A DNA stretch of 64,000 nt from Paraspadella gotoi (GCA_051294375.1 CM119269.1:11816809-11880808), one strand, 5' to 3'. Shown: positions 61,501 through 63,247, counted from the first letter of the stretch. Notes: generated by a model from the sequence alone, not told the origin. Translations and numbers: made by a program.

Positions 61501-63247
61501 GAGTTTTGACGGGCTTGTCCTTGATCTCTCCATGAATTTTCACTGTTTTATCACTTAATTCTTAATGCGCTCTCTCTGAATTCTCACTGAGCAGTCGGAA
61601 ACGGTCCAAGAGAATAATATTTGTAATATGTTTAATTAACCCAGACCCTGTACGCTTACCTGGAAATCGCCGTCAAACGAAATTCTCACGACATCGATGT
61701 GGCGCTCGTTCATCCGATGTACACTTTTTCTTTCATCACAACCATCATCTACATTCTGCCTCCTGGTATATTAGTATATTAGTATATTTGTAGTCGGGCA
61801 TAGCAAAGTTCAACCCGCTTCTAAGCATGACACCTTCATTCGTGACACGGTGGCTCATTGAGTAAAGCCATCAGCTCATGACCACCAGGTACCGGGTTCA
61901 ATCCCAACCCGGTACCTACCCTGCGGGAAGTGTGAGGATGGCCGTAGGCCGCCTTGGGGGCGTGGAAAACCCTCAAGCCTGGTTCCCAGCCCATGACCCG
62001 TTCCATAGCTGCTAGAGGGGGTTAAAGAAGTTACGGATAGTCATCTTCAGCCCACTTTGCGCCTTATCCACATATTAGTATTATGGTGGACTAAAATCCA
62101 CCAACCGTTCATCAGCGGCCATTGGTGCCGGAGGCAAGTCATTCGCCTCCCAACCCAAAGGTCCGGTGTTCTAGCCCGGTGGTCGCCTAGCAGTTAAGAG
62201 AGACGGGATGCTTAACCCGCCTGTAACACGGTGTTACAGCCTGATTTGAAGCTCAGGGACTGCTTACATTGAACAGTTCTGTCACTAACACACAACAATC
62301 ATTACTGTCTCTTCATTGGTGAGCCCGACTTTCGAAAACCAACAGCAACAACACTTTCAGGCGACATGCCTCAACCTGGCGATGCACTTTCCGCCAACAA
62401 CACATCAGGCAACATGCATCAACTTGGTGACGAACTTTCCACCAACAACAAATCATTGAAGAGACGCAACAGACTTCTCCCTACAGGAGGGGGGGATGTA
62501 TGGTGGACTAAAATCCACCAACCGTTCATCAGCGGCCATTGGTGCCGGAGGCAAGTCATTCGCCTCCCAACCCAAAGGCCCGGGGTTCTAGCCCGGTGGT
62601 CGCCTAGCAGTAAAGAGGGACGGGGCGCTTAACCCGCCTGTAACACAGTGTTACAGCCTGATCCGAAGCTCAGGGACTGCTTACATTGAACGGTTCTGTC
62701 ACTAACACACAACAATCATTACTGTCTCTTCAGTATATTATATTAGTATATTAGTCTTTATTTAACTTAATTTATAACAAATTTAAGGTTTAGTTGGGTG
62801 GGATAAAAATTATTAATGCAGAAGGTACCTAAACAAATTTGTTTGCAACAGATAGCGGTGAAAGAATAGGATCCGCCATAACGATGTTGCTTACCATGGC
62901 TGTCACAATGCTGGCTGTTAAGGTAATTTCCAAAGTGGTCACAGGATTGCGACCTTGCGTAATAATTGCACCCACCGAATTACGTATTGGATACAATACT
63001 ACATAGGCGCAATCCTAATGGAACCGATTTCCACATTAGTCGACTGAGCCTTCGATTGATGTCGACCGGAAGCCAATGACCCTTGCAATGACCCTTTGAT
63101 CTTTCAGGACATTCTCCCCAACGCCAACGTCATTAACGACGGTTATCCATTCTTTTCCGTTTTCTGCCGAATTTGCTTCGCGCAAACAATCGCCCTGTTC
63201 ATTCAGAGCATCTTCGTGATTGCAATTCACAGCTGCGAAAGACCCAA
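55579..63247 (+). CDS. Cys-loop ligand-gated ion channel subunit (nAChR/5-HT3-like, cation-type, non-alpha); M4 lies beyond the window
   Basis: Phase-compatible exons: 55579-55648 (signal peptide MYKYLFFMSLVGIFESAVA), 55903-56060, 56249-56364 (WHDPNLAW), 60663-60917 (Cys-loop CNMDTTYFPQDIQTC), 61166-61307, 61645-61765 (M1), 62852-62922 (DSGERI, M2), 63108-63247 (M3). Confidence 0.92.
58673..59336 (-). mobile_element. Family-B twister-bearing TRIM / LTR retrozyme (LTRs 59336-59103 and 58912-58673)
   Basis: TA...CA LTRs, CTCT TSD on the + strand, PBS TGGTGAGCCCGAC and PPT GGGAGGGGGGGA. Both LTRs contain twister cores. Confidence 0.92.
60246..60598. mobile_element. MITE with ~58-bp TIRs enclosing (CT)n
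   Basis: atagaaaaacatcgat...gcattcaaacca / tggtttgaatgc...atcgatgtttttctat. Confidence 0.75.
61789..62072 (+). mobile_element. Family-A solo LTR, diverged (twister core mutated)
   Basis: TGTAGTCGGG...CCACA with TATT TSD. A-box TGGCTCATTGAG at 61851 and B-box GGTTCAATCCC at 61895. Confidence 0.88.
62532..62603 (+). ncRNA. tRNA-derived (Gly-like) segment inside the family-B LTR
   Basis: 72 nt with a 7-bp acceptor-like stem GCGGCCA/TGGTCGC and a T-arm CCGGG-GTTCTAG-CCCGG. TTCGCCTCCCA resembles the tRNA-Gly anticodon region. The D and anticodon stems are degenerate. Confidence 0.65.
62606..62681 (+). ncRNA. Twister ribozyme, P5-type permutation (best family-B copy)
   Basis: AGCAGT-AAA-GAGG-GA-CGG-GGCGCT-TAA-CCC-GC-[CTGTAAC..GTTACAG]-CCTGA-TCCGAAGC-TCAGG-G-ACTGCT. 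T1 is CCG:CGG and T2 is GC:GC. Predicted cut between 62630 and 62631. Confidence 0.85.

Follow-up and report, generated by a model that had tools for sequence, protein, structure and literature searches.

Mini LTR retrotransposons of Helenus type with a twister-like fold in each LTR: candidate retrozymes in an animal genome

Mini LTR retrotransposons (TRIMs) with a tRNA in the LTR are known as Helenus or TRIMp3; in animals they are flanked by 4-bp TSDs, and their use of RNA polymerase III (Pol III) is likewise only inferred (Kojima 2024, PMC10886601). LTR retrozymes of plants undergo double cleavage and yield circles that serve as templates (PMC4918200), and promoter activity, of a type left unstated in the passage concerned, has been reported for the LTR of a plant retrozyme (PMC9695139). 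Non-LTR retrozymes of animals use dimer-dependent hammerhead ribozymes and ligation by RtcB (PMC7229834), and known twister ribozymes include those that mark the 5′ ends of RTE-type elements (PMC8501958, PMC7761336). The Tornado system, which combines Pol III transcription, two twisters and RtcB, makes circular RNAs in human cells. A search by title and by the opening of the abstract, with subscription journals and Repbase outside its scope, returned no published description of a twister in a TRIM LTR.

A preliminary description of the DNA examined here had proposed SINE/LTR hybrids with a tRNA-derived Pol III promoter in each LTR. TRIMs with a tRNA-derived internal promoter in the LTR proved to be the right class, one that had already been named Helenus/TRIMp3 (PMC10886601). 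Since Helenus covers TRIMs with a tRNA in the LTR, this headline is known, and a tRNA in the LTR would, taken alone, amount to a routine addition to Helenus. Novelty lies in the twister: as modelled below, the elements are probably twister-based, Pol III-driven LTR retrozymes of an animal.

Setting and anatomy of the elements

The window, the whole stretch of 64,000 nucleotides analyzed, is from an invertebrate animal and includes Noggin, Cys-loop channel and SHIPPO-repeat exons. The Noggin-like gene (46207-47727, plus strand) is divergent and single-exon (Pfam Noggin, E 2e-32), with best relatives that are 29-40% identical; only two distant matches to its exon, from a springtail and an annelid, were found. 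By BLAST within the window and reading of the copies, two TRIM families (A and B) with LTR, PBS, PPT and 4-bp TSD were identified. The family-B layout, in which LTRs of 234-240 nt flank an internal part of 183-190 nt with PBS and PPT, was established from two full elements: B1 (62082..62732, plus strand, 651 bp, TA...CA), with TSD GTAT and LTRs that are 95.7% identical, and B2 (58673..59336, minus strand, 664 bp), with TSD AGAG and located inside an AG microsatellite. Family A comprises a decayed solo LTR, A1 (61789..62072, plus strand, TG...CA, TSD TATT), a solo LTR inside a TC microsatellite that has the best-preserved family-A twister core, A2 (34028..34313, minus strand, TSD TCTC), a full element, A3 (26897..29619, minus strand, TSD AGCT, PBS 29323-29332), and a fragment of 46 nt near 25650. 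A3 carries about 2.1 kb inserted at the PPT, and its 3′ LTR has a deletion that begins at the A box and takes in the twister. A 4-bp TSD was seen at each of the five delimited copies; four are in low-complexity DNA and that of A3 (AGCT) is clean.

The PBS of B1 (62317..62329, plus strand) has its first 10 nt in common with family A, and this 10-nt start occurs three times in the window, each time behind a 5′ LTR. The family-B PBS fits the tRNA-Trp PBS of Fig. S2 of Kojima (PMC10886601) at 12 of 13 nt. The PPT of B1 (62485..62496, plus strand) is separated from the 3′ LTR by 2 nt. Within the LTR, only 33 nt in family B and 55 nt in family A precede the tRNA unit, and the motifs AATAAA and ATTAAA were absent from every LTR examined.

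Loose contig ends were detected at the A1 terminus at 62072 in run X1 (81 contigs) and at the B1 termini (62079-62082 and 62732), and contigs of four public runs stop at the same element termini with many different flanks. Given this recurrence and the 23,634 run-X1 contigs that fall on 1.3 kb (a count from a tool that gives no copy number), families A and B are both taken to be high-copy.

Several further observations were made on the elements and their surroundings. In both families, 9 nt near the 3′ end of the LTR are complementary to the internal part (62307-62315 with about 62457-62465; 29346-29354 with about 29268-29276), with a shared TCTTCA/TGAAGA core that possibly reflects a conserved pairing near PBS and PPT. 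The 2.1-kb insertion in A3 (about 27040-29212) lies within the polypurine tract, has terminal inverted repeats and is likely a DNA transposon. The A1 and B1 insertions share a short TATATTAG repeat (61760-61790, 62073-62081 and 62733-62755) as their target and are separated by 9 nt, and insertion in this repeat and in the AG and TC microsatellites may indicate a target preference. A2 was taken up by one arm of an inverted duplication that also includes a fragment at 34540-35700, which has no Pfam match and is presumably the endonuclease end of a Penelope-like element, as judged from a GIY-YIG-type motif.

tRNA-derived units and thymidine runs in the LTRs

The tRNA-like unit previously placed at 62532-62603 in the family-B LTR was confirmed to end (at 62603 or 62604) 2 nt before the P5 strand of the twister at 62606. 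In the B1 3′ LTR (62532..62604, plus strand) this unit has an A box at 62540-62551, CCC at the anticodon position and a B box at 62584-62594. In the B1 5′ LTR (62115..62187, plus strand) the B box contains TGTTC in this copy and GGTTC in the majority sequence; in run X1 a T to G change at 62167, found in 97.5% of the depth, restores GGTTC. The tRNA-derived unit of A1 (61844..61917, plus strand) has an A box at 61851-61862, CAT at the anticodon position and a B box at 61895-61905. These two boxes do precede the twister, as had been described, and are identical in all three complete family-A LTRs. Overall, GGTTC was present in box B of six of seven complete LTRs and, at the seventh, in the majority sequence. 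When compared to the box-A pattern TRGCY/YGG, which holds for most Helenus families, family A has TGGCT but GAG in place of YGG, and family B has TGGTG but CGG. The family-B unit is predicted to form a 7-bp acceptor stem with a pair probability of at least 0.98; in family A the B box sits in an 11-bp hairpin and an acceptor stem is absent.

The strength of the boxes was gauged against shuffled sequence with A- and B-box consensus strings, and counts are given for three versions of the A-box consensus. In family A the B box is perfect and the A box, at a spacing of 44 nt, has two mismatches; this pair was equalled in 2, 7 or 36 of 1000 shuffles depending on the A-box consensus used. The family-B boxes, also spaced by 44 nt, were weak and were equalled in 183, 175 or 29 of 1000 shuffles. 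With a model trained on 17 E. coli tRNAs, the four family-B units ranked 1, 2, 3 and 6 of 13 matches (E 0.009-0.73), and the family-A cloverleaf was not significant in this model (E 8.4). ARAGORN at default settings made no tRNA call in the window. Its relaxed mode (-ps80) did call the family-B unit, but among 46 calls in the window overall, and was dropped as evidence for being too noisy. Neither tRNA nor twister was found by Rfam at gathering level.

The preliminary description also held that the two families had captured different tRNAs. The triplets at the anticodon positions do differ (CCC in family B, CAT in family A), but both anticodon stems are broken, and the families share the 44-nt box spacing and their architecture, so that two captures are not demonstrated. 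Isotype calls on Helenus are likewise usually inconsistent (PMC10886601).

These data bear on whether the Pol III promoter works at all. The elements might be twister LTR retrozymes cut out of Pol II or read-through RNA, with the tRNA unit a relic at least in family B, a reading that we consider unlikely. It would account for family-B boxes that are near chance level and agrees with the view that retrozymes rely on read-through transcription (PMC7761336). It is also in line with family C, a third repeat of the window (see below), which has the same twister together with T4 runs and is without a tRNA unit; the twister therefore needs no Pol III. Against it, the family-A boxes exceed those of the shuffles, the 44-nt spacing is kept in both families and all four family-B units are at or near the top of the matches to the tRNA model. 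In addition, among 40 of 168 sequence variants, none alters a family-A box and the only variant in a B box is the one that restores GGTTC. Transcription by Pol III from the tRNA-derived unit is the reading that we pursue below.

The absence of T4 from the sense strand, which had been put forward as a sign of Pol III read-through, was confirmed for B1, B2, A1, A2 and the native parts of A3 but did not go beyond chance. The P values by shuffling were 0.51 (mononucleotide) and 0.14 (dinucleotide) for the family-B unit and 0.44 and 0.43 for the family-A unit, 51 of 260 GC-matched windows of 417 nt elsewhere were without T4, and family A was found to be without A4 as well. Since the elements are GC-rich and short and their shuffles are often without T4, the absence carries little statistical weight. 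T4 depletion was consequently rejected as independent evidence; the absence of T4 fits Pol III read-through and is no proof of selection. The length of the terminator differs between species (10.1101/2020.09.11.294140).

A twister fold with a palindromic hexamer in place of P1

A twister fold of P5 type was found intact in the B1 3′ LTR (62606..62681, plus strand; model score 21.4 bits, E 0.001), with the predicted cut between 62630 and 62631. The folds of the B1 5′ LTR (62189..62264, plus strand; predicted cut between 62213 and 62214; P2′, L4 and linker affected) and of A1 (61923..62001, plus strand; predicted cut between 61945 and 61946) are damaged. In A1, UAA is changed to UAG and AAGC to CAGC, and the B1 5′ LTR has an altered B box, P2′ and palindrome. 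The family-A majority has A at 61947 and A at 61987 (about 99% of depth), and among 40 of 168 variants the family majorities were found to retain the UAA, the AAGC and the catalytic G context that are lost in A1 or the B1 5′ LTR. Across the seven complete family-A and family-B LTRs, the core (U-A-A, G-A, L4 U-NNN-AAGC and the pseudoknots T1 and T2) is intact in four and damaged in three.

The Rfam Twister-P5 model (RF02684), which has a long P1 and no P3, gave a full-length match to A2 that was sub-threshold (17.3 bits compared to a gathering score of 37.6; E 0.15) and no match, even sub-threshold, to the family-B LTR; no hammerhead was found in the family-A and family-B LTRs in the Rfam results. 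Since Rfam yielded only this sub-threshold match to A2, phage twisters served as an external reference; two pattern scans supplied 135 loci, and 105 parses were made. A model was built from 26 phage P5 twisters, picked for a short P1, the presence of P3 or the T1 variants. With this model, the top five of 10 matches were LTR copies (E 1.4e-5 to 0.028), A2 scoring highest at 28.8 bits (E 1.4e-5), although two of these five alignments are partly out of register. A twister descriptor, composed after the elements had been viewed and recovering 99 of the 135 phage loci, gave four matches in 128 kb, all of them in LTRs, and none in 20000 shuffles per LTR. Hand parses as P1- or P3-type twisters did not work and were dropped. 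The four loci yielded by one metagenome scan had no tRNA call and did not resemble the elements over any extended stretch.

The helices of the fold covary. Pairs in T1, T2, P2, P4, P5 and the linker-closing position change on both sides across families A, B and C, with T1 as GGA/UCC, CGG/CCG and UGG/CCA, respectively, and T2 as GC/GC or AC/GU. The T1 variants were found in well-formed phage twisters (3 of 5 loci for family B and 7 of 11 for family A), compared to 0 of 8 for a mismatched control. Two helices are reduced. P2 has only two direct pairs in every copy, with a possible bulged third, versus three to four in phage twisters, where a 3-nt P2 strand is common and fully paired in 63 of 69 such parses. 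P1 is reduced to a linker of 6-7 nt, versus mostly 14-30 nt in phage twisters. Among the phage P5-type twisters (L005-L155), which often occur several per contig, a 3-bp P2 was seen at 75 loci and the 4-bp form of the Rfam consensus at 61.

The place of P1 is taken in the B1 3′ LTR by a self-complementary hexamer (62624-62629). The linker is self-complementary in 10 of 11 copies (six fully Watson-Crick and four with a terminal G-U), compared to a background in which 1.6% of hexamers are self-complementary by Watson-Crick pairs and 5.3% when G-U is included; the families are related, and the palindrome is not independent among them, with a GGCC core shared by families A and C and a GCGC core in family B. 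Two copies that swap strands and thereby share a P1 of 6 bp were calculated to be more stable, by 12-16 kcal/mol, than a pair of monomers in the twister fold. This swapped twister dimer was the optimum of cofolding in family C but in neither of the other two families, in calculations that leave the pseudoknots unscored. The presence of a self-complementary hexamer at the position of P1 thus points to cleavage by paired ribozymes, and the modelling is suggestive of a P1 that would form between two copies.

GC-rich palindromic hexamers also act as dimerization signals in retroviruses. The elements might be ordinary Helenus, in which Pol III transcribes to a T run past the 3′ LTR and the product is a linear RNA with a long R, the twister fold being inactive or a structural or dimerization signal for packaging. 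We regard this reading as improbable. It draws on the absence of P1, the short P2, the sub-threshold Rfam score and the first T4 runs, which are 36-1081 nt downstream of the elements, and more than 200 families of Helenus are mobile in the absence of a ribozyme (PMC10886601). Difficult to reconcile with it is that three diverged families retain, with two-sided changes, the UAA of the cleavage site as well as the GA and the two pseudoknots. Moreover, in the Osa-1-4 twister P1 is dispensable, P2 is tolerant and the pseudoknots are critical (PMC5113685), and the LTR copies, which keep the pseudoknots, lose P1 and shorten P2, follow this same pattern of tolerance. A fold that would serve for cleavage is the preferred reading.

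Family C is an AT-rich, partly tandem repeat of about 330 nt (4977-5308 and 7073-7584, minus strand; 29869-30132, plus strand; fragment 63439-63462) that was exposed by the phage-twister model; a looser descriptor gave seven matches in the window compared to a mean of 0.3 in 40 shuffles. At 7 kb it has two twister folds 323 nt apart, as estimated from BLAST and motif positions, in a palindrome-armed variant in which no tRNA unit was seen. Tandem Repeats Finder did not report the array. From its layout, family C looks like a non-LTR retrozyme in which a twister replaces the hammerhead.

Predicted cycle and comparison with described systems

The order LTR-PBS-internal part-PPT-LTR, the tRNA-like unit, the twister fold with covarying pseudoknots, the palindromic hexamer and the lack of T4 on the sense strand can be read directly in the DNA. 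Taken as a whole, they are best accommodated by a Helenus-type mini LTR retrotransposon with a Pol III transcript, paired twister cleavage in both LTRs and a circular product, a chain of steps that we propose with moderate confidence. Pol III would start at the tRNA unit of the 5′ LTR and, with no T4 in its path, would run through both LTRs into the flanking DNA. A lone twister, with almost no P1, would be slow. Once the 3′ LTR is made, the two hexamers would pair into a 6-bp P1 common to both copies, and in the resulting strand-swapped dimer both U-A bonds would be cut. This double cut would release a unit-length RNA, and a host ligase would likely close it into a circle for reverse transcription. 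An autonomous LTR element would then supply the means to prime at the PBS with a Trp-type tRNA, copy round the circle and rebuild two LTRs, and the rebuilt element would integrate with a 4-bp TSD.

The preliminary description had assigned the twister the task of trimming off the tRNA-like leader. A cut site is indeed predicted in the 5′ LTR, but both B1 LTRs have the same site, and the ribozyme would therefore also make the 3′ end. With cuts in both LTRs, the product would thus be a 417-nt unit that is without an R region, has ends fit for ligation and retains the 3′-LTR tRNA unit. The fold of the B1 circle had a z score of -2.4 against 60 shuffles, which is weak. Folding predictions varied with context: P5 was predicted at 0.97 for the nascent 3′ LTR of B1, at 0.03 for the nascent 5′ LTR of B2 and at 0.26 for A3, and the LTR end was found to compete with P5. 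Leader trimming without a 3′ cut would require the 3′ twister to stay uncut in a Pol III transcript from 5′ to 3′ LTR, leaving an R region of 102 nt and normal strand transfer. Such a route needs no ligase and has a precedent in the twisters that make the 5′ ends of RTE-type elements (PMC8501958). We judge it distinctly improbable, as the 3′ LTR is identical in sequence and, when folded with the upstream internal region, is predicted to form P5, P3 and P4 at 0.75, 0.84 and 0.97; the palindrome suggests joint action of both sites, and it is not evident what a non-coding LTR element would gain from leader removal alone.

Under the preferred reading of cleavage in both LTRs, the ribozyme would solve a problem inherent to a Pol III promoter in an LTR, which arises because any terminator in the 3′ LTR is also present in the 5′ LTR. 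By eye, 39 of 41 Helenus LTRs of wasps in DataS1 of PMC10886601 have T4 or longer after the B box, and the remaining two, Helenus-2_SyJa and Helenus-2_SyUm, have a hammerhead core 3′ of the B box and a Trp PBS. As a separate observation, the core in these gall-wasp LTRs (Helenus-2_SyJa-LTR and Helenus-2_SyUm-LTR), also seen by eye, is that of a type III hammerhead with long loop-loop complementarity, and goes unremarked in the available text of PMC10886601. Counter to a simple rule, T4 is missing after the B box of fish and some bivalve Helenus, which have no ribozyme, and T4 runs do occur in the internal part of the two wasp families with a hammerhead. More speculatively, the elements could be a natural counterpart of Tornado in which the twisters cut only as a strand-swapped pair, cleavage therefore waits for the 3′ LTR, the ribozyme stands in for a Pol III terminator and the circle escapes further cutting, with wasp Helenus-2 following the same design with a hammerhead; we think of this as a possibility, albeit a doubtful one. 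If the reading is true, the elements would represent a natural obligate-dimer twister, and abundant small circular RNAs would be predicted from a high-copy repeat.

Among described systems, the elements are like Helenus in being TRIMs of less than 1.3 kb with tRNA-derived A and B boxes in each LTR, a PBS, a PPT, 4-bp TSDs and solo LTRs, and share a Trp-type PBS with Helenus-2_SyJa. They differ from most listed Helenus LTRs, in which the tRNA unit sits close to the 3′ end and only a short tail, in many cases with T4 or longer, comes after it; here, 130-155 nt follow the unit, with a twister fold and without T4. The available text of PMC10886601 makes no mention of twister and names a ribozyme only in a reference, and four motifs of the families gave no match in its data file, in which line breaks can hide matches. 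As described in the same source, Cassandra is likewise a TRIM whose LTR has an internal Pol III promoter, but this promoter is 5S-derived, its host is a plant, a terminator and a short R are kept and it has no ribozyme.

As for the ribozyme, the Type-P5 twister (RF02684) and the Perere-3 T-variants (PMC8501958) have GA-T1, UAA, T2 and P4/L4 in the same P5 order, and the P3 of family B resembles P3 in Table 1 of PMC8501958. Core residues and pseudoknots agree with Type-P5, whereas the score is below gathering level, the P1 hairpin is represented only by the palindromic hexamer, P2 has two direct pairs rather than 3-4 bp and P5 is closed. The twister is inside the LTR, in contrast to its position at the LINE 5′ end in the Perere-3 T-variants; if our reading is true, this would be a second biological role for twister beyond LINE 5′ ends.

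Non-LTR retrozymes of metazoans, among them the dimeric hammerheads of amphibians (PMC7229834, PMC4918200), are comparable in their animal hosts, small units, weak ribozymes that work as dimers and ligation by RtcB, and the tRNA-bearing repeats of schistosomes are one case of an animal retrozyme with a tRNA, as in the elements of families A and B. They differ in having type I hammerheads and tandem repeats, and are stated to be without LTR, PBS and PPT. The LTR retrozymes of plants (Cervera et al. 2016, PMC4918200) are similar in being non-coding and in having a ribozyme in each LTR, a PBS, a PPT, 4-bp TSDs and a predicted unit RNA without R, features that were found here with the ribozyme at the level of its fold. 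Those elements are distinguished by a type III hammerhead in place of a twister, a tRNA-Met primer, the lack of a described tRNA-derived promoter in the available account and circles that have been shown, compared to the circles predicted here. As modelled, the elements thus resemble retrozymes in their working and are not members of the class as defined; if the reading is true, LTR retrozymes would be extended from plants and hammerheads to animals and twisters.
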